A stretch of DNA of 41,723 nucleotides from a virus (Duplodnaviria > Caudoviricetes), in IMG/VR virus record IMGVR_UViG_3300038673_000125, positions 1-41,723 of that record; one strand, given 5' to 3'. The notes beneath the pieces are model-generated. The model did no database searches. It saw only the letters and a list, made by a program, of their open reading frames with translations, and was not told where the DNA came from. The position numbers and the translations under genes are program-made. Below are positions 1 through 41,723 of the stretch, piece after piece; the first letter of the stretch is position 1; the number at the start of each line of letters is the position of its first letter.

Positions 1-130
1 AAAGGCAATCTCAATTTTGACTTCCCCGGTATCAATATTGACAAGGCGGCGTATCGGCATGATCGGATGGGAACAAACCAAAATGACCCCAAACATGCCC
101 CACGTCGTAATGCCATCATCGCCGCAACTG
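1..130. repeat. Imperfect terminal direct repeat, copy 1 (pairs with 41594-41723); circularisation overlap
   Basis: 1-130 aligns without gaps to 41594-41723. The first 54 nt are identical, followed by 11 substitutions. Confidence 0.95.
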
Positions 131-414
131 TACCCGCCGCATTTGAGCGCAATCGGTTGATCGGTGAAATCCGTCACGTCTGATGTTGGATCAGAACGCC
201 CTTTCTGAACCGACTTCAAATACTTTTCCCACAGCTTTTTGAAATTGGAAACACCTTTTTCCTTGGCTGCAATCGTGACGCGCTCGACCATCTGCTGCAT
301 TTTGAGCGGATCGTCCTTGATCTGATACAGCCATTTGTACGGCGCGTTCGTTTCAAGAAAATCAGATTGCTCCCAAACGGGTATTAGGGCTGTGCTCTTT
401 GTGTCGTCTGGCAT
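1..414 (-). CDS. 5' part of the DUF927/Cch-like helicase gene (continues across the junction into 41593-39995)
   Basis: ATG at 414 with GAGG upstream. The open frame MPDDTKSTALIPVWEQ...SCGDDGITTWGMFGVILVCSHPIMPIRR runs into the sequence that begins the 39995..41689 ORF. Confidence 0.9.
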   Translation of the reverse strand, partial: MPDDTKSTALIPVWEQSDFLETNAPYKWLYQIKDDPLKMQQMVERVTIAAKEKGVSNFKKLWEKYLKSVQKGRSDPTSDVTDFTDQPIALKCGGYSCGDDGITTWGMFGVILVCSHPIMPIRRLVNIDTGEVKIEIAF

Positions 415-444: not shown

Positions 445-651
445 CTATTTGCGTCCGGCTGGCGGCGTTTTTAGCAACGCCTCAATCGCATACATTCCTT
501 GGCTTCGGTTTGCTTTGTTTTTAGTCATTCGCGTTGCGATGACAGCCATACGACCGTTAAAATCGAACGGCTCGGAACATAGCTTAAGCGGCGTTTTATC
601 TTCCCTGTAATACGCCGTTGCTCCGCGCTGCATCCACTCATAACCCTTCAC
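445..651 (-). CDS. Hypothetical protein (68 aa)
   Basis: GTG at 651 preceded by AAGGAGG; fits the packed operon. Confidence 0.65.
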   Translation of the reverse strand: MKGYEWMQRGATAYYREDKTPLKLCSEPFDFNGRMAVIATRMTKNKANRSQGMYAIEALLKTPPAGRK

Positions 652-1207
652 TGGCGGCCCTCCTTTCATACTCCATCCGCTCGTACTGATCTTTCGCGGC
701 TGGAAGTTCCTCCATAGCATAGCACCATTGCGGCGAAAACACCGGATTGGTTCTGGTCGGTCGGTACTGGTCGGCCAGATTGAGCAGGAGCAGATACCGA
801 CGCTCTGTAGCGTCCAAAATGGCCTCTATTTCGCGTTTTTTTTCTGCCCTTGCATCTGCCTGTCTTTTGCGCTCTGACGCAACCTGACGCGCCCTATCGC
901 GTTCTGCGCTGGATAATTTATGGTCGAGCGGCAAGTTCAGCGCAAAATCGTCATTGAGCTGCCGAACCGCTTCGGGGAAAGTCTGATTGTTCAGCTTCAT
1001 CACGAGATCAATAACCGTGCCGCCCTGGTGACAACCGAAACAGTGGAATCCCCTGTCGCCCTCGTACAACTTCATGCTGGGTGTCTTTTCGCCATGGAAC
1101 GGGCAGCATACAAATCCGTGGCGAGAAACAACAAGGCCGTACCTGACCGCAACGTCGCGGGCCGTGACGCTGCTTTTGATCGCGTCGAGAAGCTCAGGCG
1201 GGATCAT
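638..1207 (-). CDS. CHC2 (DnaG-type) zinc-finger protein, with no primase catalytic domain
   Basis: CCPFHGEKTPSM...FHCFGCHQGGTVIDLV motif followed by a coiled coil; ATGA overlap with the upstream gene. Confidence 0.85.
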   Translation of the reverse strand: MIPPELLDAIKSSVTARDVAVRYGLVVSRHGFVCCPFHGEKTPSMKLYEGDRGFHCFGCHQGGTVIDLVMKLNNQTFPEAVRQLNDDFALNLPLDHKLSSAERDRARQVASERKRQADARAEKKREIEAILDATERRYLLLLNLADQYRPTRTNPVFSPQWCYAMEELPAAKDQYERMEYERRAASEGL

Positions 1208-2873: not shown

Positions 2874-4306
2874 TCTCCCAAATATGTTACGGTCAGTTCA
2901 TCCTCATTCGTAGTACGCGAACTGATAAACTGTAACCCCTTTTCGCGGCAACGGTCGTACAGTTTCTTGCGGTTATCGTCGGACAGCTTCTCGGCGCCGT
3001 CAATCAGAATGATTTGCAGGCTGTTCGGTTTGGCAAGCGCAACCTCAACGCACAGATCCAGTTTTTCCCCGTCGGACAGGTTTGACACGGGCAGCCCATT
3101 GATAAGCGGTCGACCGTCCTCAACCGTCAGACCGGGGATAGGCAGTTTCGCCGTTTCAAGAATGGTGCCGGGAAGCGAACGGGCAAGCTCAATCTTTCGG
3201 GTCAGTTCTTCGCTGTCCGCAACCAGCCCGTCAAGTTCGGTCTGCATGGTTCTCATACGGGCGTACTCGCGCAGGTGCTTTTTCATCGCTTCGGCCTGCG
3301 TGACTTCGTTTTGCAGCTCGGTCGTGTCGTACAGTTTTTGATTCGCAGTTTCCTTCGCATCGCTGGCGGAGGATTTCAACGCAGCGATTGCTCCGTCGCG
3401 CTGGGCTTCAAGGACTTTTCGCTTGTCTGCAAGTTTATCCGCAAGCCCTTCCAGGCGTTCTTTTTCGGCCTTGATCTCGGCTTCCATGCGGGCGATGTTC
3501 TGCTGGATGGAGCTTTTTTCGCTCGCAATAGCGCGTTCTGCCGCCGCCATGCCGCCCTCAAAGTCCGCCACGATTGCCCGCAACTTACCTTGCTCGGTTT
3601 CGATGATTGCCTTTGCCCGTTCGACGGCGCGGTTGTGCTCGTTTTTCTTCTCGATCTCGCGGTACACGGCGCCGACATCGTATTCCTCCCATTTTTTCGC
3701 GTCATAACTGGCCGGGATATCCTTGGCAATATCGTCAATCGATGCCTTTTTGAACCGGATATCGCGGTTGATATCCTGACGTGACATGAAATACTCGCCG
3801 TTCTCAGCCTGGATATCATTCAGAACTTGGAGGATATTCTGTTCATAATCCACGCCGGGCGGAACCTCGCCGAATTGTTTCTTAATCCAGTCCATATCCC
3901 ATGGAAACTCGATCATGTCCAAGATTAAACGGTTCTGCTCGGCTTTTGGCATGTGAATAAACGCGACCGGGTCAAGTTGGAGCGGGGTAAAGATTGAACG
4001 CAGGAACGTCTCCGCGCTGCCAACTTCGCGCCCGTTATCTTTGACCGACTTGTAATCGGCCTGTTCCAACCGTTTCTTGCGCTGAATCCGCAGGGCAGAA
4101 CCGGCTTCAATGATAATCTCGCCCTCTTTCTCGCCCTGCTTGATGATGAAATCCCGCTCGGACGAGTTTTCCAGCGCGTATCTGATGGCATCCAGAACAG
4201 ACGATTTGCCGGTGCCGTTCTTGCCGGTCAGCTCAACGCTGCGCCCGTCAAGCTCCTGTTCGGCAATACCAAACAAATTTTTGATGGTTATTTTGGTAGT
4301 TTTCAC
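2870..4306 (-). CDS. SMC/Rad50-like ABC ATPase with coiled coil
   Basis: Walker A GKNGTGKS, long coiled coil, signature LSDGE, Walker B ILIDG. Confidence 0.88.
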   Translation of the reverse strand: MKTTKITIKNLFGIAEQELDGRSVELTGKNGTGKSSVLDAIRYALENSSERDFIIKQGEKEGEIIIEAGSALRIQRKKRLEQADYKSVKDNGREVGSAETFLRSIFTPLQLDPVAFIHMPKAEQNRLILDMIEFPWDMDWIKKQFGEVPPGVDYEQNILQVLNDIQAENGEYFMSRQDINRDIRFKKASIDDIAKDIPASYDAKKWEEYDVGAVYREIEKKNEHNRAVERAKAIIETEQGKLRAIVADFEGGMAAAERAIASEKSSIQQNIARMEAEIKAEKERLEGLADKLADKRKVLEAQRDGAIAALKSSASDAKETANQKLYDTTELQNEVTQAEAMKKHLREYARMRTMQTELDGLVADSEELTRKIELARSLPGTILETAKLPIPGLTVEDGRPLINGLPVSNLSDGEKLDLCVEVALAKPNSLQIILIDGAEKLSDDNRKKLYDRCREKGLQFISSRTTNEDELTVTYLGE

Positions 4307-4854
4307 CTAAATTCCTCCTGATTTTCCGGTTGTTCGGCTGCATCGTCGGCCTGATTTGGTTCGTCTTTCTTCGCCTTGCGCTTGGTCGCACAGTCCATAC
4401 AAAGCGGTACGCCATAACGGTCTTTCGCGCCTTTCGCAATGATGGCCGCCTTGTACCCGTCCTGATCTTTGATCTGCTTACCGCAATCAGCGCACGCCGG
4501 CAGCTCTGCCGGTTTTGCCTGAGCGACAGGTTTGCCCTTGACCCTGACGGCGTCCGTTACCTCGCCGAATGCTTTGATCTTCTGTGTATGCAGGGCGATT
4601 CGTTTCCCCGCCCAATCTTCTACGTTCGGAGAGCCGACCAACTTCGAGATCATCTTCCCGTTGGTGCTGTTCAAAACAAGCGGCTTGACATTTTCTTTGA
4701 AATACACGACCGGGCAATCGTCTTTTTTCCCCTCGGCCCCGTCTATGATTTCGCCTGAAACGTGGTCTATCGTGAGAATCTTTTCTTCGCCCGGTTCAAA
4801 ATCCCACGAACCAATATAATTTGGATTTGTTAGCTTCTTCCAATGTGTCGGCAC
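4303..4854 (-). CDS. Phage recombination-module protein (possible ssDNA-binding or annealing protein) with C-terminal zinc ribbon
   Basis: GTG at 4854 after GGAGG; THWKK...KPLVLNSTN...EDWAGKRI motif; CADCG...CMDC; lies next to the exonuclease and ATPase. Function is inferred from context. Confidence 0.6.
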   Translation of the reverse strand: MPTHWKKLTNPNYIGSWDFEPGEEKILTIDHVSGEIIDGAEGKKDDCPVVYFKENVKPLVLNSTNGKMISKLVGSPNVEDWAGKRIALHTQKIKAFGEVTDAVRVKGKPVAQAKPAELPACADCGKQIKDQDGYKAAIIAKGAKDRYGVPLCMDCATKRKAKKDEPNQADDAAEQPENQEEFR

Positions 4855-8329: not shown

Positions 8330-8509
8330 CTACGCTTCGTCCTTGTCCTGCAAGGCTTCGATTTCATGCAATGCGCTTAAAAGTATTTCGGACAGTTTAT
8401 CCCCGTAAGGATTTTCAACCTTGGCTAAAAGACCCATGATTGCCGCCTGAGATTCAGCCAACCGGTACGCATAGTATTCCTTGGCCGTCATGCCCTGCGT
8501 GGTTTTCAC
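8330..8509 (-). CDS. Hypothetical early protein (59 aa; absent from the ORF track)
   Basis: GAGGAGGGG RBS, GTG start, MKTTQGMTAKEYYAYRLAESQ...DKDEA. Confidence 0.7.
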   Translation of the reverse strand: MKTTQGMTAKEYYAYRLAESQAAIMGLLAKVENPYGDKLSEILLSALHEIEALQDKDEA

Positions 8510-8587
8510 GATGTTCCCCTCCTCATAATATGATGCCTTTCGGCTGGTCGCCGGCTTTTGTAGGGATGCCGGGCGAACCCTGCGAGG

Positions 8588-9463
8588 TTATTCTTCCGGC
8601 GCGTCAAGCTGCATTATCATTGCCACGGCCTTTTCAGCACGTCCGGCCGCCGATACGATCATGCTCTGATCGTCTTTCAGCGCTTTCAACCAAGACTGAA
8701 TATACGCTACATTATTGCGGAAAGTCGCTTCCGTTTCCAGCTTTAGCAGCGTCATGATGCACGCGGCGCCGATCTCTGCGGTCAATTCTTCCTTGCTGTA
8801 TACTTCGCTCCCAAATGCAGCATGGCCCGCGATCCGCTTCAATCGCTTTTCATGGCCGGTGCTGTGGACCGCTTCATGGAACGCCGTTTCATAGTATCCG
8901 CCGGCCGTCTGGAATTGGGTACGAAGCGGTAACGTGATGCTGTCTTTCATGGGCGTATAGTAGGCGCGATTACTTCCGACGTTCGTTACCGTGATATGTT
9001 CGCGCGTCGTGTATCCGTTGAATACCGATTCTGCTTCTTCTTCTGGTTCAAAAACGCGGGCCGGTTCGTTGTCCGTCTTGAAAATGCGTGCCGTGATGCC
9101 GTCTACCTGGTCGATGTGAAAAACGTTGTAGTAGCGCAGGTACGGGATTTTCTTCTGTTTTTCTACGTTGTTTTCGTCTTTCTCTGTGATCTCGATCTGC
9201 TTCCAGAATACGACGATCTTTGACTTCTCGCCTTTCCGTACCTGTCCGCCGGCTTCTTGTGCTTGCTTGTACGTCAGGTATTCGCCGGGCTTTCCAAGCA
9301 ACATTTGGTTGATCAGGCTGTACGGGTATCCGGTCGCCCGGCTGTACGCGCGGCCCTCTCTGCTTTGTACGCGGGATGGAATGCACCAGGGTTGATGCCA
9401 AGGAATAACGCCGTTTTCCAGTTCTTTGATGATCCGGTCGGTTACGATTTCGTTTACGTTCAT
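8588..9463 (-). CDS. ardC: ArdC-family antirestriction protein (ssDNA-binding N domain plus zincin-like metallopeptidase domain)
   Basis: VTDRIIKELENGVIPWHQPW, YSLINQMLL, TYKQAQEAGGQVRKGEK, YYNVFHIDQ, FHEAVHSTGH, YSKEELTAEIGA, YIQSWLKAL. Confidence 0.92.
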   Translation of the reverse strand: MNVNEIVTDRIIKELENGVIPWHQPWCIPSRVQSREGRAYSRATGYPYSLINQMLLGKPGEYLTYKQAQEAGGQVRKGEKSKIVVFWKQIEITEKDENNVEKQKKIPYLRYYNVFHIDQVDGITARIFKTDNEPARVFEPEEEAESVFNGYTTREHITVTNVGSNRAYYTPMKDSITLPLRTQFQTAGGYYETAFHEAVHSTGHEKRLKRIAGHAAFGSEVYSKEELTAEIGAACIMTLLKLETEATFRNNVAYIQSWLKALKDDQSMIVSAAGRAEKAVAMIMQLDAPEE

Positions 9464-9499
9464 TGTGATACATCCTTTCGTCAATATGATTTGCGGCCA

Positions 9500-9550
9500 T
9501 CCGCGACGCGCCTTTCAGCGCGTTTCGTCCTGCTGGACTCGTCAGGCGGA
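9500..9550 (-). ncRNA. Type I hammerhead ribozyme
   Basis: The minus strand reads UCCGC-CUGACGA-GUCC-AGCA-GGAC-GAAA-CGCGC-UGAAAG-GCGCG-UC-GCGGA: full conserved core, three Watson-Crick stems and a GUC cleavage triplet. Confidence 0.92.
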
Positions 9551-9850
9551 AAAGAATTTTTCAATCCGGCAGAAAATAGTGTCGTATCCGTTCATTCCTG
9601 GTAGCATGAGGTCCGCGATGCTTTCGGCGGTACTCTGCGCCGAGTGCATTTCTTCGCCTGAGCAGATTGACAGCAGCGCGCCATAGATTGCCGCATAGAT
9701 GATGTTGCCTTGTTCGTGTGTAGTTTCTTGCAGATAGTCGCAGCTGTTACCGTTGTTCATGGCCCGGACCATCATAGATTCCGATTGTTCAAGTGCGTAT
9801 GCTTTCATTTCTGCTTCCGTGTAGTGTTTTTTGTCGATGTAGTGTTTCAT
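9542..9850 (-). CDS. Hypothetical protein, first gene of the leftward operon
   Basis: ATG at 9850 after GAAAGGCGG; its TGA stop lies within the hammerhead core. Confidence 0.7.
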   Translation of the reverse strand: MKHYIDKKHYTEAEMKAYALEQSESMMVRAMNNGNSCDYLQETTHEQGNIIYAAIYGALLSICSGEEMHSAQSTAESIADLMLPGMNGYDTIFCRIEKFFSA

Positions 9851-9911
9851 GTGATAACCGCCTTTCATTTCTCGCCCAGCCCCATCCGGCTGCGGCGTTC
9901 GATCATGGCTC

Positions 9912-9941
9912 ATTCTAGCACACCTGCGCTAAATCCGTCAA
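9912..9941 (-). promoter_or_regulatory. Leftward sigma-A/70 promoter (putative early promoter)
   Basis: TTGACG-18 nt-TAGAAT with a TGn extended -10. Confidence 0.7.
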
Positions 9942-10131
9942 CACATTTTTCAGCAGTTCGCGAAAGTTCGGCAGATCAGAATAGATTTCGCGGTCAAGTT
10001 TTGTGCGATTCTGACAGTTTCGGGCCGATTTGGGGCGGGATGGCAGGATGATCGCGCCCAGGTTGTACACGCGCACATAAATTATTGAAGCGCATTTCGC
10101 CGCCTGGACCGGGCGGATCGGCAGCAAAAGA

Positions 10132-10159
10132 TTGACTTTTTCTATCACTTCGGTATAAT
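10132..10159 (+). promoter_or_regulatory. Rightward sigma-A/70 promoter
   Basis: TTGACT-16 nt-TATAAT followed by the RBS AAGGAGGTG (10168-10176). Confidence 0.75.
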
Positions 10160-10181
10160 AACAGTGAAAGGAGGTGAGATT

Positions 10182-10541
10182 GTGTACAGTGTCTACAAGG
10201 TTATTGACGAGACAAACGAACAGTCCATGGATATACGCGGGAAGGTCCTTTTGGATTGGCTTGGCAATGTGATCGTTCAAAACATGGCGCGCTTTACCGA
10301 GCATGACAGACTATCTCCGGACAAGATATGGGGCGTGATCGACTTCCCTGATCGCGTGTATATCAAATGTGCAGTCTTGGACAAGCTGCTAATGTCCAAG
10401 TACACAAGAGCGCGCCTGTTCGTTGCTTGGGCAAAAACAAAAGGATATCTCAGATGTGATCCAGGCAGGACATCTATTACAAAATGGATGCCACACGACA
10501 AGGCGTATCGATGTTACTGCTTCCCATTCAAAGAGCGCTGA
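10182..10541 (+). CDS. Stand-alone paralog of the DUF927 helicase C-terminal domain (putative winged-helix DNA-binding protein)
   Basis: GTG after AAGGAGGTG; 23/55 ungapped identities to the helicase residues encoded at 40232-40396. Confidence 0.85.
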   Translation: MYSVYKVIDETNEQSMDIRGKVLLDWLGNVIVQNMARFTEHDRLSPDKIWGVIDFPDRVYIKCAVLDKLLMSKYTRARLFVAWAKTKGYLRCDPGRTSITKWMPHDKAYRCYCFPFKER

Positions 10542-10549
10542 GCTTCACT

Positions 10550-10575
10550 GGCTGCCAGAAATGGTGGCCTTTTTT
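10550..10575 (+). terminator. Rho-independent terminator
   Basis: GGCTGCCA-GAAA-TGGTGGCC followed by TTTTTT. Confidence 0.85.
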
Positions 10576-10677
10576 ATTTTGTGTTGAAAGTGTACAATGC
10601 GGTGAAGCTGATTGTTTCGCGCATTTCCGCATAAATGAGATTTAAGGGCATATTTTATCCAGCCAGAACCCAGCAAT

Positions 10678-11036
10678 CGTATCCGCATATAACCAAACTT
10701 TGTGTATACTGTGAGTATTATATTGCGTCTGATTGTATGAATTTCATAACCGCGGTAAGGATCTGGCGATAAACTGCGGATACGCTCAAAGCCTTACAGC
10801 GCAAGGGTTACAGAGGTCATATAGCCGATATCCGCACATAACCGAACTTTCACTACACTATATAAGGGAGATACCCCCCCCCTGTAAGATAGTATATTCC
10901 TCACGCGCGTAGAGAATACATAAAAGTTTGGTTAAGTGGAGATATATTATATATTATATAAGAAACACTATATATAATAAGGGTTTGCCGCCATGTCCAA
11001 TTGTTTACCACTTACTTGCCAATTCCTTACCGTGGT
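10678..11036. repeat. Candidate replication origin: 22-bp iteron-like repeats, inverted repeats and an AT-rich tract
   Basis: TATCCGCA(T/C)ATAACC(A/G)AACTTT at 10680 and 10829, with an inverted 18/22 copy at 10923-10944; inverted pair 10749-10767/11018-11036; TA-rich tract about 10942-10980; no credible ORF. Confidence 0.6.
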
Positions 11037-11714
11037 GATAAAGCCATAAACTGTACTGGTGGTAGGTGCGTGGGTTTGGGCTGAGATAGATTTCTGCTTG
11101 GCCGCCCGAACCCTCAGACAAACTGATTTGACTAGTACGCTACCACAGTAGTATACTAGTCGACTTTGGCTAGATCGCGCAGATCAGCCCTGTTTTGCCC
11201 CTCCCAGACCGTGACTGATAGCATTATTCTAGGCGGCTTGTGGATAATCGGTAAAGTTGCACAAGAAACACAGCTATTCTTTGTGCATGTTTGTCACAAC
11301 TATTCGTGAAAGCATTCTTTAGCGAATAGTTAGGTCAGATCAGCCAATTCGCGCACGATATCCTTTGTTAGCAGGGCCTCCCGGGGTACCGGGGTGTAGG
11401 GGGTGCCGATCAAGCGGGGGGGGCCTAAACCTTGTCCGGCGGCGGTTTGCCGGCCAGGGCTATACAACTAGCATACCCTCCCGGCCTCAACCGACGCGGG
11501 ACGTCTCGAACAACTGTTCCCCATAGAAACGGCGTTCCCCATCAAGGCGGCGTTCGCGTTTAATATGGTTGAGCGGGGCTGGTTGCTCGGCCTTTTCCGT
11601 CTCAAAACAAACTTGAACGCCCTGGGCTTTGCGTGGTATACTGTGCCACGTGAAACAATCTTCCAGCCGGGGCAAACCTGCTCGCGGGAACAAACCTGAT
11701 TGGGGTTGAGCTTT

Positions 11715-12200
11715 ATGGCAAAGGTCGGGACAGTGAAGTTGAAGCGGAGTCAAAAAGCCGCAGCGCTTCTGCTCGCACACGGAAAATCAATGCAAAGCGT
11801 TGCGGAGAACCCTGATGTCCGCGTTTCGGTTGGCACGTTACGGAAATGGATGGAGGATACGGACTTCACCGATCTTCTGTATAAGGAACAGGATATGCTT
11901 CTGACAGAGGTGCGGCACAGATTGACGCCAATGTTCGTTGATAGCACACTCAAAGCGATGCGCACGCTCCGTTCTCAAGTCGCAGAAACCGATCCAAAGA
12001 CGAGAGAACCGAATGACCCGTGGATCCGTCTGAATGCAGCTAGGGCGCTTGTGCAGATGGGCCAAGGGTTCATAGAGAAAACAGAGGACAAGTCCATCAC
12101 AATCAGGTTTGATGGAATGCCTGTGCTCGGTTCGCCCGGAGCTGAGAAAGTTGAACCCGCTGACGGAAGCGATATCATCAACGGCCTGCTCGAAAAATAA
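11715..12200 (+). CDS. terS: Putative terminase small subunit
   Basis: N-terminal HTH (QKAAALLLAHGKSMQSVA...VSVGTLRKW); its stop overlaps the terL start. Confidence 0.7.
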   Translation: MAKVGTVKLKRSQKAAALLLAHGKSMQSVAENPDVRVSVGTLRKWMEDTDFTDLLYKEQDMLLTEVRHRLTPMFVDSTLKAMRTLRSQVAETDPKTREPNDPWIRLNAARALVQMGQGFIEKTEDKSITIRFDGMPVLGSPGAEKVEPADGSDIINGLLEK

Positions 12201-13798
12201 TGAAACAGGTTAAGATAGATTATCGGCCTACGCCGAAACAAATAATGTTCCACGCTTCACCGGCGAATGAAATCCTATTTGGTGGGGCAGCTGGCGGAGG
12301 CAAAACCAAGGCTCTTATCATGGACGCGTTTATGCGGTGCTTGCAGGCTCCAAATACTCGCGCCTATATTTTTCGGCGCACGTTCAAAGAACTTGAGGAC
12401 ACGGACATACGCGAGGCGCGAGCAAGCTACCCAAAAGAACTCGCCACGTACAATGTCGGCAGGCATGAGTTTTTGCTTATAAACGGCTCCAAGATACTTT
12501 TCAATCATTGCGAACACGTTGCCGACAAGTTCGACTATTCCGGCGCTGAGATAGACTTTCTGTACTTTGACGAGCTCACCGGATTTGAGCAGGAGATATA
12601 TGATTTCATCAAAACCAGATTGCGCTCAAAAACCCTGTCCGGCGTAACGCCCGTTGTCCGCAGCGCGAGCAATCCAGGCAACATCGGGCATATCTGGGTC
12701 AAGGATATGTTTGTCGATTCGGGGCCGTACATGGAATTGCGCGAAACAATTCAGTACAGCGAAACCCTGAACGAGCATAAAAAATTCACGATCCAGTACA
12801 TTCCTGCGTTGGCAACGGAGAACCCGCATATTACCAAGGATTATATTTTCGAGTTGGAACGCAAGCCTGAAAAACTTCGCCGGGCGCTTTTGTTTGGACA
12901 TTGGGATGCGTTTGAGGGACAGGTATTTACCGAGTTCGTCAACGATCCCCGACATTATGTTGACCGGGTTAGCACGCATGTTATTGATCCGTTTGAAATC
13001 CCGATGCACTGGCCGCGTTATATGAGTTTTGACCATGGATATACTGCTCCGTCCTCAATCGGATGGTGGGCCGTGGATCCAAAAGGCCGACTGTATCGAT
13101 ACCGCGAATGGTATGTTGACGGTCTTACTCCGCGACAGCTTGTAGACGGAATTCTTGAGCGCGAACGAAAAGAACGCGCCGACAACATCCACATCATCAG
13201 GGTTGCGGACCCGCACATATTCGATACTGAAAGCAACGGATTGAGCGTCGCAATGCAGATGGCCCCAAATTCCAGAAACGGGCTTTTGGGTTTGAATTTT
13301 CGGACCGGTGATAATGCGCGAATCGCCGGGAAAATGCAACTGCACGAGCGGTTACGGTTTGACAAAAACGGGTATCCAATGTTATATATATTTACGAACT
13401 GCGAGGATTGGATACGCACAGTTCCGAACCTGCCATATTCGAGAACAAAACCAGAGGATGTCGATTCGTTGGCAGAGGACCATTGCGTAATTGGCGAAAC
13501 AGAAGTCTTAACCAATCAAGGCTGGTTGCAAATAAAAAGCCTATGTGATACAATGGGTTATGTGGTGAGCCATGATGGGCTATACCATAAATATTACGAT
13601 TGCCGAAAAACGCAGAAAAATGTTGAAGTGTTTTCGATTGAAACGGACGATGGGAAAACCGTACAAGCGACCGCAAATCATAGGTTTATGTTGGCGGATG
13701 GCACTTGGAAAAGACTAGACGAACTGCAAGTAGGCGATGATCTTATGGAGGCCCGCCGTGAAAGTATCTATCTTGTCCCCAACGCAACAGGAGTTTAA
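12200..13798 (+). CDS. terL: Terminase large subunit N-terminal part (428 aa) fused to an N-terminal split-intein half (104 aa)
   Basis: PTPKQ, Walker A GGAAGGGKT, Walker B YFDE, SNPG, nuclease FDHG. After ...AEDH the sequence becomes intein block A CVIGETEVLT and block B ATANHRFM. Confidence 0.93.
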   Translation: MKQVKIDYRPTPKQIMFHASPANEILFGGAAGGGKTKALIMDAFMRCLQAPNTRAYIFRRTFKELEDTDIREARASYPKELATYNVGRHEFLLINGSKILFNHCEHVADKFDYSGAEIDFLYFDELTGFEQEIYDFIKTRLRSKTLSGVTPVVRSASNPGNIGHIWVKDMFVDSGPYMELRETIQYSETLNEHKKFTIQYIPALATENPHITKDYIFELERKPEKLRRALLFGHWDAFEGQVFTEFVNDPRHYVDRVSTHVIDPFEIPMHWPRYMSFDHGYTAPSSIGWWAVDPKGRLYRYREWYVDGLTPRQLVDGILERERKERADNIHIIRVADPHIFDTESNGLSVAMQMAPNSRNGLLGLNFRTGDNARIAGKMQLHERLRFDKNGYPMLYIFTNCEDWIRTVPNLPYSRTKPEDVDSLAEDHCVIGETEVLTNQGWLQIKSLCDTMGYVVSHDGLYHKYYDCRKTQKNVEVFSIETDDGKTVQATANHRFMLADGTWKRLDELQVGDDLMEARRESIYLVPNATGV

Positions 13799-14458
13799 CG
13801 GAAAGGTTTACTATTATTGTACCCCCTATTATCGAAAGGGCGGGAAATGCCTTCATCGCGCAGTATGGGAATATCATAATGGCGTGATCCAGGCTGGGTT
13901 TCATGTTCACCATAAGGATGGAGATAGAGAAAACAATAACATAGAAAATCTACAACTTATGCCAGGGCCTAATCATCGCAGTTTCCATGCAAAAGCCAGA
14001 CCTGAATATCTTGCGAAGCAAATAAAACTGATGCAAGATAAAGCAAAAGAATGGCATGGGTCAAAAGAGGGGCGAGAATGGCACGGGTTACACGCCAAGG
14101 AAATGTGGAAAAGCAAAGAAAGCCAAGAGTATCACTGTTGTCAATGCGGCAAAGCGTTCCTGACTAAGCACCTTTACGGCGATAGCCAAAACACGTTTTG
14201 TTCAAATAATTGCAAAGCAGCATATCGACGCGTTCTTGCAGTTGACAATGAGGTGCGTAAGTGCGTATACTGCAAAAGGAGTTTTACAACGAATAAATAC
14301 TCTAAGGCGCAGTGTTGTTCCAGAGAATGTTCGGCAAAGAAACGGTGGAACAAATGAAAGTAAAAAGTATAACTTATGCGGGAAAGGCCGACGTTTACAA
14401 CATGGAGGTCGAAGGTACCCATAATTTCGTCGTGAACGGTGGGCTTATAGCCCACAAC
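13484..14458 (+). mobile_element. Split intein / homing endonuclease element inserted in terL
   Basis: IntN (13484-13798), HNH gene, IntC (14354-14458, ends HN); more AT-rich than the flanks; exteins join as EDH|CFDETRY. Confidence 0.9.
13758..14357 (+). CDS. HNH homing endonuclease with C-terminal Cys4 zinc-finger repeats
   Basis: GGAGG then GTG at 13758; LHRAVWEYHNG...VHHKDGDRENNNIENL; CQCGKAF..FCSNNC and CVYC..CCSREC. Confidence 0.9.
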   Translation: MKVSILSPTQQEFNGKVYYYCTPYYRKGGKCLHRAVWEYHNGVIQAGFHVHHKDGDRENNNIENLQLMPGPNHRSFHAKARPEYLAKQIKLMQDKAKEWHGSKEGREWHGLHAKEMWKSKESQEYHCCQCGKAFLTKHLYGDSQNTFCSNNCKAAYRRVLAVDNEVRKCVYCKRSFTTNKYSKAQCCSRECSAKKRWNK

Positions 14459-14566
14459 TGCTTCGACGAGACTCGCTATCTCCTAATGGAACGCCCGTTG
14501 GGACCGCAGCCAATCAAGGTGCGCAGTCCAGAAGCAGAAGGACCGTACAGAGGGGTAGCAATTTAG
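14354..14566 (+). CDS. terL: C-terminal split-intein half (35 aa) plus terminase C-terminal extein (35 aa)
   Basis: ATGA coupling to the HNH stop; MKVKSITYAGKADVYNMEVEGTHNFVVNGGLIAHN|CFDETRYLLMERP... contains blocks F and G and a Cys+1. Confidence 0.92.
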   Translation: MKVKSITYAGKADVYNMEVEGTHNFVVNGGLIAHNCFDETRYLLMERPLGPQPIKVRSPEAEGPYRGVAI

Positions 14567-28456: not shown

Positions 28457-31400
28457 ATGCCAAATTATTCTACGGTCGCAACAGCGCTTCAACAGCTTTT
28501 GTATGAAAAAGATGATTCTGATAAATGGTATTCTGGCGATGCTCCGACCGAAAGCGAAATACTAGCTAAAATTTACACCGTTTACGGGGCTGACACTAAG
28601 AGCACGAAACAGTATTTCAGTGCGCTTAATCTTTTGCACACCGATAAATCCAGCCCGCTATATAATCCATACACGGCGGCAACAAACTCCGCGCTGCGGG
28701 CGATTTCTGATTATGGTGTCGATACGTCACGCGGAATCACTGACGATTGGATTCAAGAATACTCTTATCTGAAAAACTATTATCGCGTAGGAGAGGGCGG
28801 CACGCCACTAGCGCCGTCTGCGAAATCCTCGAACGAGGAAAACGCTGCTTATTACTATTACAAGATTCTGAAATCAGAGGAAACCACGCGCAAGGCAGAA
28901 ACCGAATGGGCGGCTTTGCAGGAGGAAATCAATTATTGGGCCGCACGGACCGACCGGAATTATTCTGACCAGCAGATCCTTGACAAAATCGATTGGAGCA
29001 AGTATTCCACACTGACGGCTCTGGACGAGGATAAGAACCTTGGCACGCCAACTTCTTTGAACCGTGCAATCGATTACAGCACCGACGTATTGTCCGGTGT
29101 TGTTTGGGGCGCTCGGAACAAATCTACGGGCAATGTTTTTGTTGACAGCGTTCAGGCGGCGCTTGGGGCTGGCCGTCAGTATCGGCAGGACGCGGATATC
29201 GCCGCCAAACTTGACCCGACGAGCGATCAGTTTAATCCGTACAGTGTCGGAAGCACAGCGGACGCTGCCATGCTGTACTTTGGCATTTCTTCCGCTGATG
29301 ATGATTGGCTGACAAAGAATCGCGGGATCCTTTCGTCCGGCGACAAAACGGCGATCAACTACTACCAGACACTTTTTGATGCGCGGCAATTTACCAAGCA
29401 GGCCGAAAGCGAACTGGAACGCCTGTATGCCGATATCGATGAATATTTGCTGACGAGCTCTGACCCTGACCGAATTATCGACAATCTGCTGACCGACAGC
29501 GCGATTCGTTCCACGGAGAAATATGGCGAAGAAGGTTATCCTACGCTGCGAAAACTGGACAGCAGCCTGAAAAGCGGCGAACTGTACAACACGTCCGGCG
29601 CGATCGATTACAGGTGGAGCGATGTTGAACAGTATATCCGCGACCGTTGCGAAGAAATCAATGCAGAGAAAGCTGAAATCCTTCGCGTCAAGTCTGAGAA
29701 TTCTGTTACCGAGATTAAGAATGAAATCATCAATTCTGCCGGGGATACCATCAAATACGTCGGTACGGACGGCGAAAAAGATGCTTTCAATTTCACATAC
29801 AGTGCGAATTTTAACGAGTATGTCAATGCGATTAAGGCCGAGATTGACAACGGCAAAATGACGGGCGGCGCGACGTATGAGTACGCGCTTGGACGTGCGA
29901 ACGAATATGCGGCCAAGAACTATATGGCGCTCAAGGATACCGTCGCCAAATACGAATCTGCGCAAGCTGAACTGGCCGAAGCACAGGCCGGTCTTGCAGA
30001 AGCGGAAAAATCCGGCGAGAACATGCTGGCCCTTGACAGCGACGTAACCCGCATGAACATTGCCGTCAGTGAAAATACCGCCTATCTTGAGAAAAACAAA
30101 GCCAAGTATGAGAAAGCATTGCAGGGCATCACGGCGATAGAAGAAGCCTACACCGCTGCAAATGAGATCGGGGATATTGTTGGTGGCGATATTTCCGACG
30201 GCATTGTGCCTGTGATGAATTTTGCCTACGAATATGGCAGCGAGTACATCCCAACGGAGTGGAGCCCGCAGACTATTTACGATGCCGCGATTGAGGCCGG
30301 ATATTCCTTTGACGAGGTTTCCGCCATAGCAGAGGCGCAACTTCCGGTGCTTGAAGAAAATATCAAAACGATTGACTTTGCGCTTTCTGTCCTTAAAGAG
30401 AACAAGGTTCAGATAGACGGCTCATATATCAACAATTTGAACCGTCGCAAAAGTGAGTTCATACGCGATACGAAAGACGCTCAGTATTTATTATTGCAGA
30501 ATGAACAAGATTTCGAGTCAAAGTCTAGCGAATATGCACAAAAAGTAAAGGACGCATGGAAAGGATATAACCCGCTTGTAACGTTTAATAACAAACCGAT
30601 ATTAGGCACAGGATCAAAAGAAGGGTTCAGCTATCTTTCGCTTTGCATGGTTGATATAACAAAAAGCCTTGGACAGAATTACGCTGCCGCAATGACGGAA
30701 GCGGAACGAAACACTTACCTTTATCTGGCCGATACGCAGGGCGAAGAAGCGGCGCAGGAATATTATACCCATCTTACCGATGCGACGTATGGAGCCGTTA
30801 TAGTTCGGCAGTCGCAGAAGTTTGGGGAGATCGTACAGGACTTTGCAGATCAGAACGCCATCGGCGCGACAGTTCTTTCGATCGTGGCTTCTCCGTTGCA
30901 AATTTCCGGTACGATATACGCCGCGGGAACCGCCATCGCTGGAAATGAGATCAACCCGTATAATCCCGCTTTCTCCATGACAACGCTTGTGCAAGGATCG
31001 CGGGAAACCGTCAAGGCGAATATCACAGAAAGCCTTGGAGAAGGGACGTTCGGCGCGTTCGCGGCGAATCTGGCATACGATATCGGTACGACGAGCGCTG
31101 ACAGCCTGACGAGTGCATACTTGGGCGGGAGCGCAATTGGCGGCACGCTTCTGATGTCCGGGGAAGCGACGGCAGCTGTAATCCAGTACGCAAAACAGCG
31201 CGGAGCAACGGACGAACAGGCGCTATCGGTTGGCGGCATCGCGTTCGCCGCTGAGTTTGCCACTGAAATCATTCCGCAGACGTTAATGCGCAAGGCTTTT
31301 CGCGCCGGTGCTGCCGGGAACGTATCTGCATTCAAAAAGATTATCGCGGCAGACATAACATCCGGAACGCTCGGCGAAATGCTGGCAGAATTGATCGAGG

Positions 31401-34400
31401 GCACTTCTGATACGCTGATTATGGGCGAACTGTCGCAACGTGAACAGCGCGTGAATTCCTATATTGATCAGGGCATGACAGCGGAGGAAGCGGAGAAACA
31501 GGCTAATTGGGACTTCTTTTACGAGATCGGATACGCCGGACTGGTCGGATTGTTTGCAGAAGGAACCGGGCAAGTGTCGGCGTTCACTGCTGGTAAAATA
31601 TCCAGCGTATTCAAGCCTACGCAGAAAAATACGCCGCCTAGCGATAATGCTCCTGTGGAGCCCGAAAACGGCCCGAATTTGAACGATAATATTGCTGGTG
31701 CAAATATTCAGACTGAGGTTGAAACTCCTGCTGGTGAACAGGCAGGGAACGGACAGGGGCAAGTTGAAGCAGAGTCACCGGTCGTGGAGCCTGTGCAGGC
31801 CGAAAATGTTGCGTCGGTCGAGCCGCCTGCAGAGATTAACGCGGACCTGTCCGAAGAAAGCGAAGAAATCCAGCGCATTTTCCCGATAGCATATGATCGG
31901 GCCAGAACGGATACGATAACACGATACGCAGCCAAACAAATCGCAGACCAGATCAAAGCCGAGGGCCGGGTATATTCTGCTGGATCTTTGGCAAATGCAA
32001 TTATGGCGCTGTCCGATGCAACAACCGCAGAAAATTTTCTTTCCGGCGTCAAAGAGATTGCGGCGGATTTAGCAACGGATAATAGTGCCGTTACCGAAGA
32101 ATACTCGGAAATAAAACAAATTCTCCGTGATAGGGTTTTCCGGCTGAGTGATGCACAACGCTCAGAAGCGAAAAATTCTTCCGATGGAATGAGACGGTTC
32201 ATGAATTCCATAGTCGGGAAAACGAAAATGAGAAACGATGCGCAGATTACCCTGGATCAGTTGTGGCCAGAACTTAACGACAAGGCACCTAATTTGTTCG
32301 AAGCGGATATTGCTGAAACAGATATGCCAAGATTGCTTACCGAGGCACTGGATACAATTTATGCAAAAGGCAAACCTGATCCAAAGGCGCAACAAGAATA
32401 TCTTGAATTTATTTTATCGGCAATCGCTATAAGCGAAAAACCCAAAGAATCAACGGTGCGTTCGCTTGCCGCGCTGGGCGAAGCTCTTATGACGAATGAT
32501 CTTGCCGGGCAAGCGGCGGCTGTTGCCGCTTCATTGGAAGAATCAAGCGCGGATACGGACGCTGCGGTCGCGGCGAGCAAGGCGCTGATAAAACAACATG
32601 GCGCTCGTACCGTTGTCAAGACTATGCGCGACATCAAAAAGTTAGACGTACCGGGAGCAGAACTCGCGGTCATGGCGGCTGCGTTGAGCCAAGACGCCAA
32701 GGCAAACGCCGCGCTCAATACACTATTCCTCTCCCCGACTACCAAGAGAAACATCAATGCGCTTATCAACGCGGCAAAGGGTATTGCGGATAGAGGCGCA
32801 ATGCAAGCGGCCATTACTGACAGCATGGTTTCTGAACGCGTCAAGGAACTTGTCGGGGCTGGGAAATTGCAGGGGTTACAGTCCTTGCAAGCGTCCTTAT
32901 CACAATCGCGTCAAAACCTTACGGAATCTCAGGCCAAACTTGAACAGGCGCAACGTGATTACGATATATCGGGTGAAAACGCGCAGATCGCAAACGCACA
33001 GTTTATTCAGAACCCGTCCGCGCCGGAACTGCGCAACCGGGTATCTCAGGCGGTAAACGAGCTCAAGGGAAAAGCAATCGTTGTACAGCAGATGCAGGAA
33101 TCCGTTGAAAAATACACCACACAATTAGCCGCTGCGGATAAAATGCTCAAGTCCGCCCGGAATAATGCCATGAAAGATGTTCGGCAGCAGGCCATGGATG
33201 AAGTGAAACAGGCGCAAACGGAGCGCGAAGCCGGGATTAAGGCGGCCATATTGCGTGAGGCGGTTATGCCGGAACCGATGCAAGAGGTTCCGTTGTTTGC
33301 TAAGGCAAGCCAGCGCGGTACAGAACCGGCAGGGCGAACCAGAACGGCCGCTCCAGCACAGGTCGTCAGCCCGGTCGAAACTGCCGTACAACTTGCGGAC
33401 GCGCTGGGAATCGGCAAGACAATCAGCACGCGCAAAATGAACAGGTTCCCATCAAAAGTGAAAGGATATTATTTGGAACGGGCCCGGCACATGGCAATCC
33501 GGTCGGGAAATTCGAGCGATTTCACAATCACGATGCACGAGCTTGGACACGCCGTATCTGAGCGCCTTGGCATGGTTGGAACGGACGAAATGATTTCTAA
33601 TCTTCCGGGCATGTTTGCTGACCAGTATTCCGCAGACGCATTGCCGAAAGAATCGTTTGCCGAATTCTTCTGGCGATACATTGAGGACGAGGGAACCGCT
33701 CGTGCGTTTGCAGGGGATCCGTTCTATAATAACTTCGAGCGCGAAATGAAACGCGCCGGAATATATGATGCGGTTGCAGAATCCCGCGACAGGATACAGA
33801 CGTATAATTCTGTGTCAACCATCGAACAAACAAAAGCCCGGCTCGTTGACGCGAGCAAGAAAACCTATTCCAAGGACGGAATCCTAGACACGCTCCACAA
33901 TAGATTGCGCAACTTTGAAGCCGGGACGTTCAACTGGACCGCGTTTGCCCGTGATATTGACAAGCAGATCACCAAACAGGGCGGGAAAGCGGCTGTTGAA
34001 ACGCTGTTGCAGATGCGCAACTTCTCTGCGCGTCAGGCCGGAAACATGCTGAAAAATCCGCTGTTCGATCCTACGGGCCGGTATCAAATCGCCGGATCCT
34101 TTGCAGACACGCTTGCGCCGTACATAACTCCGCAGACGTTCGAGGACTACAATGCGTATCTTATCCTGCTACATTCTCTGGATATGGATGCGCTGAATAT
34201 CGAAGTCCTGAACACGCCAAGAGCGGACAGACAAGCCGCCGTCGCAGAAATGGAGCAGGCTAATCCTGAATTCAAGGAAGCCCGCGCCGCGTTAAGCGAA
34301 TGGTGGGACGCTCTTATGACGGCCTACATGGTTGAACCCGGATTGCTTTCCGCAGAAACCTATGCGGAGTGGAAGAAACAAAACCCGAACTATGTGCCGC

Positions 34401-39994: not shown

Positions 39995-41723
39995 TTAAAG
40001 AAATGGTAAATCTTCGACAGTTTTTTCGGCAGGTTCAGACGGTTGCGACGGTTCGGTCGGTGCTTCAATTTCCTGTGGATTAAATTCAACCGGGACATCC
40101 GGTACGCCGCTTTCGTCCGCGTCGCTGATAAGCTCGGGAGGAAGTTCTACCTGTTCATCTTCTTCATAAGGATTCTTCCCGTCCGCAGCGGGCGTTTTGA
40201 TCGCAATGCAGCGAGCGGCAATTTTTATGCTTGGTAGCCATTTGGTTATCGTCGTTCGGTTGTCCTCGCATCGGAGAAGGTTCTTGCGTTTCGCCCAGCT
40301 CAGGAAACTTTCGCTGCTGAAACTTGCATCCGACATAAGTTTATCGAAATGGCTTTTGATGATGTACGCATACCCGTCCGTTTCGATCTTGCCCCAGCAC
40401 TCGCCCTGATAATCCTCAAACTGGTTCGTCCCGAATCGGTTCGGATTGCTCGATATGGTATCCATCAGCCATCCATAAGCGCGTCGGTTCGCGTCGGCCA
40501 TTGCGGTCGTTGTCAGGTATGGGATAATATCGTCTGGTTTCAGGTTGTTCCCATCGTCGAAAATCAGCAGTTCGGCCAGCGCGTCAGCGGTCAAAATAAG
40601 TGACGCGGATAGGATCTGTTTGGGATCGGCTTTGCCGGCCAGTTGCTCTAGATAGTTGTTGTTGACATCGTGAGCTATATCCATTGCGTCCTTGGCTGAC
40701 AACTGCTCAACAAACATCTTTCCTGCATGTCCGTAATTTCTTGTCAGAGTTGAGGCGGCTCCGCGTGGATCCGCGAACAACCTTTCTGATTCGCAGTTCA
40801 GTTCGATAACACGCAGGACGGCGCCCATTCCGCTAGTCGGGCTTGTGATAGGCATTTCGCCCGTGGAAATCGTGCAGTTTCGCCACGTGGTAGTCCGTTG
40901 CAGGCCGCCCGTTCTGGATCCGCGAGTTTTGCCCGCGCCCTCGCAGAGCATGTAGATCAGTTCGTCAAATTGGTTTCGGTGCTGGTTCTTCACGCATTGC
41001 AGTTCGTCCAGGCAAAGCGGCAGATTCCCGCAGAATGCCGCCAGCAGTTCGTTTCCAACTTTGGTTCCATTGAATGTTTTCGTGAACTCGCCTGTATTTG
41101 GGCTACCCCATACGCTTGAGGCTAAGAACAGGCCCAATGTTTTGCCTGCCCCAGCGCCACCCCAAACATGCACAACGAACGGAAGCGCATCCATCTGACT
41201 GACCATCACGCTTGCGAAACTCGCCGCGAGCATAACTCTTGCGACAATACTGTTGCCGGCGCGTACCTGTTTGGCCAATTCTAACCACTTCTCATAGGAA
41301 CCCTCCGTCCTGACACAATTAAACATGTGCCGATTCTGTTCGTCGCCATCATAGATCAGGTTTTCCGTGTAGGGCGAGAAACCATATCCGTCCATCCAGC
41401 CGAGCCGGGAAACGCTTTTCACCTCCGGCAGATCGTCGTAGTTCAAATTTTCCATGGCCGACAAATACATTACAAGCTGTTTTGCATTTTCGCTATCAAC
41501 GCCGATACCGAATGAGGATAACGCGACGATTTTCTGCGACGCGGACAGGGTTTGCTTGTCAAAGATTGCCGTGCGCCAGACTTTCCCGCGACAAAAGGCA
41601 ATCTCAATTTTGACTTCCCCGGTATCAATATTGACAAGGCGGCGTATTGGCATGATCGGATGTGAGCAGACCATAATTGCACCAAACATGCCCCACGTCG
41701 TAATCCCCTCGTCGCCGCAACTG
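39995..41723 (-). CDS. DUF927/Cch-like replicative helicase (3' part; gene starts at 414 across the junction)
   Basis: VSRLGW, Walker A GGAGAGKT, Walker B LCLDE, GAGKTRG..TTWR..STGE, arginine-finger-like VLRVIE, NYGHAG. Confidence 0.88.
   Translation of the reverse strand, partial: SCGDEGITTWGMFGAIMVCSHPIMPIRRLVNIDTGEVKIEIAFCRGKVWRTAIFDKQTLSASQKIVALSSFGIGVDSENAKQLVMYLSAMENLNYDDLPEVKSVSRLGWMDGYGFSPYTENLIYDGDEQNRHMFNCVRTEGSYEKWLELAKQVRAGNSIVARVMLAASFASVMVSQMDALPFVVHVWGGAGAGKTLGLFLASSVWGSPNTGEFTKTFNGTKVGNELLAAFCGNLPLCLDELQCVKNQHRNQFDELIYMLCEGAGKTRGSRTGGLQRTTTWRNCTISTGEMPITSPTSGMGAVLRVIELNCESERLFADPRGAASTLTRNYGHAGKMFVEQLSAKDAMDIAHDVNNNYLEQLAGKADPKQILSASLILTADALAELLIFDDGNNLKPDDIIPYLTTTAMADANRRAYGWLMDTISSNPNRFGTNQFEDYQGECWGKIETDGYAYIIKSHFDKLMSDASFSSESFLSWAKRKNLLRCEDNRTTITKWLPSIKIAARCIAIKTPAADGKNPYEEDEQVELPPELISDADESGVPDVPVEFNPQEIEAPTEPSQPSEPAEKTVEDLPFL
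41594..41723. repeat. Imperfect terminal direct repeat, copy 2
   Basis: 119/130 identical to 1-130. Confidence 0.95.

Follow-up and report, generated by a model that had tools for sequence, protein, structure and literature searches.

How the replication of a phage might be affected when the DNA-reading domain of its helicase is also made as a free protein is the question raised by a small gene in a tailed phage (Duplodnaviria; Caudoviricetes). The window analyzed here is the whole 41,723-nt stretch of IMG/VR record IMGVR_UViG_3300038673_000125. The gene, which we term the mini-gene, encodes a relative of the C-terminal domain of the phage's own DUF927 helicase and abuts a repeat-rich non-coding region. 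The original prediction held that the mini-gene copies this domain and that its product could competitively inhibit initiation at the adjacent DNA. The mini-gene bears on how initiation is timed and limited in replicons of the SaPI/Cch type.

Expression signals and surroundings of the mini-gene

The mini-gene open reading frame (10182..10541, plus strand) begins with GTG and encodes a 119-aa stand-alone Cch-type winged-helix protein with a pI of 9.3. A sigma70-type promoter-like site (TTGACT-16-TATAAT; 10132..10159, plus strand) precedes it, matching the consensus at 11 of 12 positions and ranking first among the seven sites found on scanning 9000-12500; a single contig from a diverged relative (depth 2.7) has TTGACA and a similar spacer beyond 10118. 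A ribosome-binding site, AAGGAGGTG, is read from the sequence at 10168..10176 (plus strand) with the start codon seven bases 3' of its GGAGG, and an intrinsic terminator-like hairpin and T run follow the gene at 10550..10577 (plus strand; hairpin 10550-10569). A leftward promoter-like site of the early operon (TTGACG-18-TAGAAT with a TG extension; 9912..9941, minus strand) faces away from the mini-gene, and the promoter scan places a further site 5' of the terminase genes (11128..11157, plus strand). These signals bear out the original description of a 119-aa gene that has its own promoter, ribosome-binding site and terminator and that diverges from the early operon.

Positions 8500-12500 are tiled by Logan contigs of one run, possibly the source sample, which match throughout except for one 8-nt gap, and contigs from a run of another study show four differences in 10496-10679. 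Other sequencing runs cover little of the length of the mini-gene, and no RNA datasets occur among the runs listed as carrying its sequence. The element GTTGTACAC is present 5' of the mini-gene both in the window (10063-10071) and in the related locus L003 (3665-3673), and an inverted TTGTACAC is situated directly 3' of the window terminator (10592-10599). Other runs, from landfills, bioreactors and wastewater, yield contigs in which the non-coding stretches 9916-10118 and 11080-11640 are preserved at ~85-100% identity. GATCAG-type repeats recur in these kept stretches and a hairpin occurs at 11300-11331; they may possibly constitute a packaging or control site.

The mini-protein is a Cch-type winged-helix domain

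The mini-protein shares 34 of 88 residues (39%) with the phage helicase (blastp, E 9e-16), and a recount of the 55-residue block compared earlier again gives 23 ungapped identities. No other match in the window has an E value below 0.4 (tblastn), and blastn detects no DNA-level similarity between the mini-gene and the helicase gene. Pfam assigns residues 26-117 to PF18662 (HTH_56) with a score of 33 bits, above the cut-off of 26.2; three of the four further relatives scanned also exceed this cut-off, with P0001 scoring 25.1. No other Pfam domain is found up to an E value of 1, the only PHROG match is to primase/helicase, and the domain search shows no ATPase.

Structural similarity to Cch-type helicase domains is seen in an AlphaFold model of the mini-protein (pLDDT 82), built on an alignment of 11 sequences that includes helicase domains. 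The model superposes on the C-terminal domains of SaPIbov1 Rep (8TCH; Z 11.2, rmsd 5.7 over 113) and of SCCmec Cch (5DGK; Z 10.1, rmsd 2.3 over 83), which define the PF18662 fold. It also has the fold of TcpK (5VFX; Z 10.9, rmsd 2.3 over 90, 8% identity), a small stand-alone winged-helix protein to which no sequence similarity was detected. The next structural matches are a DUF1528 domain at Z 8.2 and others at 6.3 or less.

A CI-like repressor, with an XRE/Cro-type HTH and an S24 or dimerisation domain, was considered and rejected since the mini-protein has PF18662 alone. In agreement with the predicted lack of an integrase, tyrosine and serine recombinase searches (PF00589, PF00239) of the record (CheckV 94%) were empty, so no linked integrase of a temperate module was found.

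The phage helicase and its missing neighbor

The main part of the DUF927/Cch-type helicase is encoded at 39995..41689 (minus strand) and its N-terminal part at 1..414 (minus strand), the gene running across the record ends through a 130-nt overlap with 119 matches. The protein combines PF06048 (DUF927) with PF18662 at residues 399-499 (65.9 bits), so that a DUF927 ATPase and a C-terminal winged-helix domain occur in one protein; the latter maps to 40196..40495 (minus strand), with its wing, RTTITKW, at 40238-40258. The 11 differences between the record ends (1-130 versus 41594-41723) fall inside the helicase gene and suggest that two helicase alleles or strains were merged in assembly. The primase gene (638-1207, minus strand) contains only a CHC2 zinc finger and a helical tail, as do those of L005 and L186, and priming may therefore depend on a host enzyme. 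No partition gene came to notice in the open reading frames scanned, and general domain scans of these frames gave no relaxase.

In the SaPI arrangement the origin is located just 3' of rep, as described in two reports (PMC9371898, PMC7581432). No origin motif is found directly 3' of the window helicase because the next gene begins 15 nt past the helicase stop. The replicon is thus of the SaPI/Cch kind and the free domain is PF18662, yet the origin is not behind the helicase.

The mini-gene belongs to an old stand-alone family

A phmmer search of 1.84 billion representative proteins gave eight matches to the mini-protein. The best five are proteins of 112-161 aa with 87-47 bits, and helicases follow at 36-37 bits. 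The remaining three comprise a chance match to a Cys-rich protein (P0006) and a helicase fragment (P0007), which were both dropped from the family, and one full helicase. In a tree of 56 domains, in which long branches were flagged, all six short proteins group in a single clade with support of 100/99, and the domain of the phage helicase pairs with its sister from L186. A reduced tree of 23 of the 56 rows recovers the mini clade and rejects a clade of the mini-protein with its own helicase (p-AU 0.00012). Additionally, six diagnostic columns separate minis from helicases, and the acidic helicase tail is missing in the minis. These sequence comparisons indicate that the mini-gene is a member of an old stand-alone family and is no recent duplicate of the phage helicase. 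The statement that it copies the helicase C-terminal domain consequently holds as far as homology goes but misleads in implying a recent copy.

The family is rare, forming clusters of one or two members. A profile search with the mini alignment returned four known members among 641 candidates and no new one, and neither word-based searches with the mini-protein nor searches with the helicase domain against shorter proteins gave matches. DNA context is available for two of the six minis (window and P0004); the other four were judged to be stand-alone from their sequences, two of them being on contigs of ~1 kb, and no locus was found for P0005. In a back-translated motif scan of metagenome contigs one of three matches was true, this being L168, which is 99.7% identical to L003 and therefore not independent. 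None of four matches was true among genome contigs and none was obtained among viral contigs, a weak blank given that L003 was also missed. Genome sampling gave seven positives of 401 in one phylum sample (six long frames and one short frame from a decayed helicase); the order sample gave 4 of 51 and the class sample 1 of 73, with every frame long. Against phage and plasmid records, three matches of P0004 coincide with helicase-domain matches, one being annotated as an MCM-like helicase, and P0005 matches one DUF927 protein. Some ESM Atlas clusters (132-153 aa) carry partial HTH_56 annotation and may include fragments. The Atlas also holds a Bro-N cluster (280 aa, 86 members) whose aligned part is HTH_56, and the Cch-type domain may perhaps also have been recruited into Bro-type regulators. 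A trap in counting stand-alone domains is illustrated by L175 (G270:C1:1167782-1171108), in which decay of a primase-helicase gene has left behind a short frame with the winged helix.

Such decay, the rarity of the family and a compatible gene order (in L005 the helicase, origin and terminase are co-oriented) would allow the mini-gene to be a functionless remnant of a helicase 3' end left by an inversion or duplication. We regard this as highly improbable, given that open frames of 112-161 aa have been kept at 28-41% identity across six proteins together with the diagnostic columns, and given that the window and L003 genes alike have a ribosome-binding site, promoter-like site and terminator. 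In addition, no helicase is left upstream of the mini-gene, and the rejected mini-plus-helicase clade speaks against such a remnant as well.

A likely displaced origin behind the mini-gene

SaPI-type origins consist of opposed short repeats that flank an AT-rich part, according to PMC9371898. The DNA behind the mini-gene (10620..11060, no strand assigned) is by homology likely a displaced origin of this type, with eroded RTAWCC-like iterons and an AT-rich part. An nhmmer search with the helicase-adjacent origin of L186 gave its best window match at 10770-10926 (E 1e-4) and matched L003 at 4236-4376 (E 1e-3), both 3' of a mini-gene and in the same orientation. This homology upholds the view that the repeat-rich region is an origin. 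The three 22-bp repeats noted earlier in this non-coding DNA are confirmed, with pairwise identities of 20/22, 18/22 and 18/22. The first (10680..10701, plus strand) contains two iteron-like units, the second (10829..10850, plus strand) corresponds in the nhmmer alignment to the L186 origin's left iteron triad, and the third (10923..10944, minus strand) is inverted and occupies by alignment the place of the right triad, with a TA-rich tract next to it. A 34-bp imperfect inverted repeat, 74% complementary, frames the origin (left arm 10743..10776, plus strand; right arm 11009..11042, minus strand). The imperfect palindromic box AAAGCCTTA..AAGGGTT (10788..10809, plus strand) matches helicase-adjacent origins of relatives, and the core motif CGCGCGTAG (10904..10912, plus strand) is common to the origins of L035, L037, L041 and L186. 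The window contains a single copy each of the box, CGCGCGTAG and TAAGGGTTT, and all three lie inside the candidate origin.

In layout and motifs the region is homologous to opposed arrays of near-identical iterons around an AT-rich core, but its own copies are degenerate. The region lies outside the top five windows by crisp-iteron score, and a profile of 15 origins gives an E value of 0.14 for the window and 3e-5 for L003. L186-type iteron words number 5 in the window versus 1.6 expected (P 0.02), and 11 in L003 versus 1.0 expected. At the two origins next to a mini the right triad is irregular and a TA-rich tract has been added, whereas phages without a mini have crisp 9-bp triads. A cluster of ATATCC at 3500-4100 was rejected as an origin for it falls inside an SMC-like gene, and the turns of GC skew at 8851 and 37387 are uninformative because gene direction turns at the same places.

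Gene order in related phages

Helicase loci of related phages were collected from viral contigs (67 loci, many near-identical). A crisp two-orientation 6-mer iteron array is located within 400 nt of the helicase stop in 63 of them, with a weaker array in L199 and none in the other three. No short domain frame occurs in the flanks covered at any of the 67. Replicons of this type therefore work without a mini-gene. A scan for the origin palindrome recovered few helicase loci. The layout of the window is repeated in L003, where leftward small genes are followed by a divergent mini-gene (126 aa, 39% identity), a terminator, a non-coding origin, terS and terL. Its terminase is 70% identical, and its mini-gene likewise has a ribosome-binding site, promoter-like site and terminator. 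Of 33 terminase loci, L003 alone carries a mini; the rest are mostly distant, and the closest among them (L002) starts at terS.

The co-orientation of helicase, origin and terminase in L005 makes the window look like an inverted early block from which the helicase 3' end and the origin stayed behind. An old inversion or duplication would have left these before the terminase genes, and the leftover helicase 3' piece would have been retained as a separate gene. Two complete phages (G460 and G462, both 100%) encode a DUF927 helicase without a mini. G460 has no origin adjacent to its helicase and carries two crisp GTTACA origins, among head genes and before ardC (L261:9430-9630, L262:9330-9490); displacement of an origin therefore does not require a mini. 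G462 (L264-L266) has no iteron origin by the crisp-iteron score.

L003 also provides a hint that the domain might control transcription, with its own, the early leftward or the terminase promoter as target and the origin sites as operators. In that locus the 110 nt 5' of the mini-gene contain three copies of CGTAAC, two of them within the promoter-like site (noted post hoc), as against five copies elsewhere outside the origin. The position of the window mini-gene amid divergent promoter-like sites and, as a lead only, the Bro-N cluster of the ESM Atlas point the same way. We nevertheless consider such a switch unlikely, for promoter-to-origin similarity in the window is not above background (36-99% of random stretches equal it), the rightward promoter-like site has no L186-type iteron at up to one mismatch, and selection for a helicase-matched wing points to the origin.

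The wing strand and its predicted specificity

The predicted base-reading element of the mini-protein is the wing strand RTSITKW (residues 96-102; 10467..10487, plus strand; strand E99-102 in the model). Base reading in the major groove by a beta-wing is described for TcpK (PMC6137059) and for SaPI PriRep5 (bioRxiv 10.64898/2026.10.17.759575), and the wing of the mini-protein would be expected to read bases in the same manner. It matches the helicase wing RTTITKW at six of seven residues, the highest value among 300 mini-by-helicase pairs and one that none of 1012 distant helicase pairs reaches at 96-102. Over residues 23-95 the mini-protein shares 22 of 73 positions with its own helicase, which is not above several other helicases. 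Trp102 is found in none of 49 other helicase domains and in none of the five other minis. Four other mini-by-helicase pairs, among them the L003 mini with the window helicase, reach 5/7, and the match is therefore partly due to shared ancestry. However, six of the eight shared degenerate codons differ, which argues against recent gene conversion and indicates that the match was kept at the protein level.

Among 313 distant helicase pairs a shared iteron core is associated with higher wing identity (p 0.006 for 96-102, p 0.002 for 96-104), in shuffles that ignore phylogeny and with eight segments tried and the wing window picked after the match had been seen. The six other domain segments show no such association in the same pairs (p 0.2-0.99). 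Iteron-core labels were assigned by hand to 29 of 48 helicase rows, leaving out near-duplicates, three rows without an origin and two that were ambiguous. The covariation of wing and iteron across these ~29 helicase lineages is a first step toward a recognition code. The matched wing, its unique Trp and the tracking of the iteron core by the wing make it likely that the two proteins read the same sites, a suggestive case that comes from one comparable mini/helicase pair.

A related idea is that the mini-protein mainly blocks the origins of co-infecting or superinfecting phages with a similar iteron, its own origin having eroded to escape. The strong promoter-like site and early position of the mini-gene would suit this, as would the contrast between degenerate iterons of its own and crisp ones in relatives, in which GTAACC-type origins are common. 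We find such interference decidedly unlikely, as the wing matches that of the phage's own helicase and not those of GTAACC-type relatives (His96, Arg102), and as a resident state is without evidence.

Proposed function at the adjacent origin

The PF18662 assignment, the origin homology beside the gene and the wing match to the helicase all support the predicted detached domain of the origin-binding type, and this free domain probably acts at the adjacent origin with the specificity of the helicase. Specific binding to a putative origin is described for the C-terminal domain, taken alone, of SCCmec Cch2, a helicase of a different family, in PMC7581432. That the effect on replication is negative, with the mini-protein serving as a brake or timer, we hold to be plausible rather than probable. 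The mini-protein would bind the iterons of the origin directly behind its gene, where matched wings would mean common sites. It would be produced before the helicase, because the mini-gene is preceded by a near-consensus promoter of its own, with the helicase ~9.5 kb down the early operon. Having no ATPase, it would keep the helicase off until enough hexamer accumulates, and above a threshold the multivalent hexamer would displace it from the weak, eroded iterons. This reading is favored because the mini-protein lacks an ATPase, has a separate strong promoter-like site and is paired with a helicase at the end of the early operon; because relatives replicate without a mini; and because weak sites would favor a multivalent hexamer only above a threshold.

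Several points count against a brake. Matched wings are as compatible with cooperation as with competition, and high-level production of an inhibitor is a burden for a phage that shows no sign of a maintained state. By analogy, the nearest stand-alone structural match, TcpK, would also argue for the opposite effect, as it is described as a positive factor (PMC6137059). A TcpK-like helper, which would bind the outer iterons and inverted repeats, bend or bridge the DNA and aid helicase loading at an origin with decayed inner iterons, is thus possible, although we think it falls well short of probable. TcpK is the best stand-alone structural match, and PMC6137059 places its gene upstream of oriT and describes it as required for efficient transfer. 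The irregular right triad and TA-rich tract at both mini-associated origins would also fit a helper, for which matched wings are expected too. On the other hand, the phage helicase retains a full winged-helix domain of 65.9 bits, an origin without a nearby mini is present at 63 of the 67 related helicase loci, and the origins of G460, far from the helicase and without a mini, show that displacement alone needs no helper.

If the mini-protein is a brake, it represents a new means by which a phage that does not integrate can hold back its own replication. A carrier state and superinfection exclusion, both part of the original prediction, are conceivable as possible consequences of the mini-protein; among the observations made, the missing integrase is the single one that bears on them or on copy number. 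Rather doubtful is a further generalization, namely a family of detached domains whose wing co-evolves with the resident helicase as a built-in dominant-negative of initiation, providing copy-number control or a carrier state together with exclusion of phages that share the iteron. If true, the mini-gene would constitute an integrase-less podophage analogue of the truncated origin-binding repressors of animal viruses. For example, papillomavirus E8^E2 and HSV-1 OBPC retain a DNA-binding domain minus the effector part and dampen replication at shared sites; these are eukaryotic proteins of unrelated folds and are products of the initiator's own gene. The mini-gene places a free origin-reading domain, with a wing apparently tuned to the resident helicase, in a fixed position beside the origin. 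Three small parts (domain, helicase and a 450-bp origin) allow a direct test of whether loading is blocked or helped and whether the wing sets specificity.

Comparison with known systems

SaPIbov1 Rep and SCCmec Cch (8TCH, 5DGK) share the winged-helix fold of the mini-protein (Z 11.2, 10.1) and the DUF927 plus HTH_56 layout of the phage helicase. In those systems the domain is within the hexamer and the origin is behind rep, whereas in the phage the origin is behind a domain-only gene, ~10 kb from the start of the helicase gene, and its iterons are eroded. To our knowledge, SaPI/Cch-type helicases are described as loading themselves, with no accessory factor required. TcpK of the Clostridium perfringens plasmid pCW3 (5VFX) is, as described in PMC6137059, a small stand-alone protein that has the fold of the mini-protein, is encoded near the origin it binds and reads tandem repeats with its beta-wing. 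Together with a relaxase it acts at a conjugative oriT, where it promotes transfer, whereas the DNA beside the mini-gene resembles a replication origin. In that report TcpK is not described as homologous to any domain of its partner, whereas the mini-protein is homologous to a domain of the phage helicase. As judged from its model, the mini-protein would resemble TcpK as a stand-alone wing-reading protein near an origin, and it is at most a candidate member of a TcpK group.

Phage P4 Cnr is a small protein that controls the copy number of a replicon with an origin-binding helicase, according to PMC8628076. Cnr would be a functional analogue of the mini-protein for copy control. It acts on the alpha protein, a helicase of a family other than Cch/DUF927, and is not known to be a copy of the DNA-binding domain of alpha. 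In the literature covered, which takes in few subscription journals, we found no phage origin described with a Cch-type domain encoded on its own.

Other features of the phage genome

The terL gene is fractured over 12200-14566 (plus strand). The end of terL matches the N-part of an intein (PF14890 positions 41-93), an HNH gene follows at 13737-14357, and the frame at 14312-14566 contains an intein C-part (positions 110-155) and the terminase C-terminus. Both intein matches are below the Pfam cut-off, and terL of L003 is uninterrupted at the intein site. From its sequence the region has the appearance of a natural split intein enclosing a homing endonuclease, an arrangement known from fractured genes. 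Finally, a 2830-aa protein (28457-36949, plus strand) has an LPD38 large polyvalent protein domain at residues 2380-2567 and ArdC is encoded at 8588-9484, which together point to a podophage that bears polyvalent proteins.
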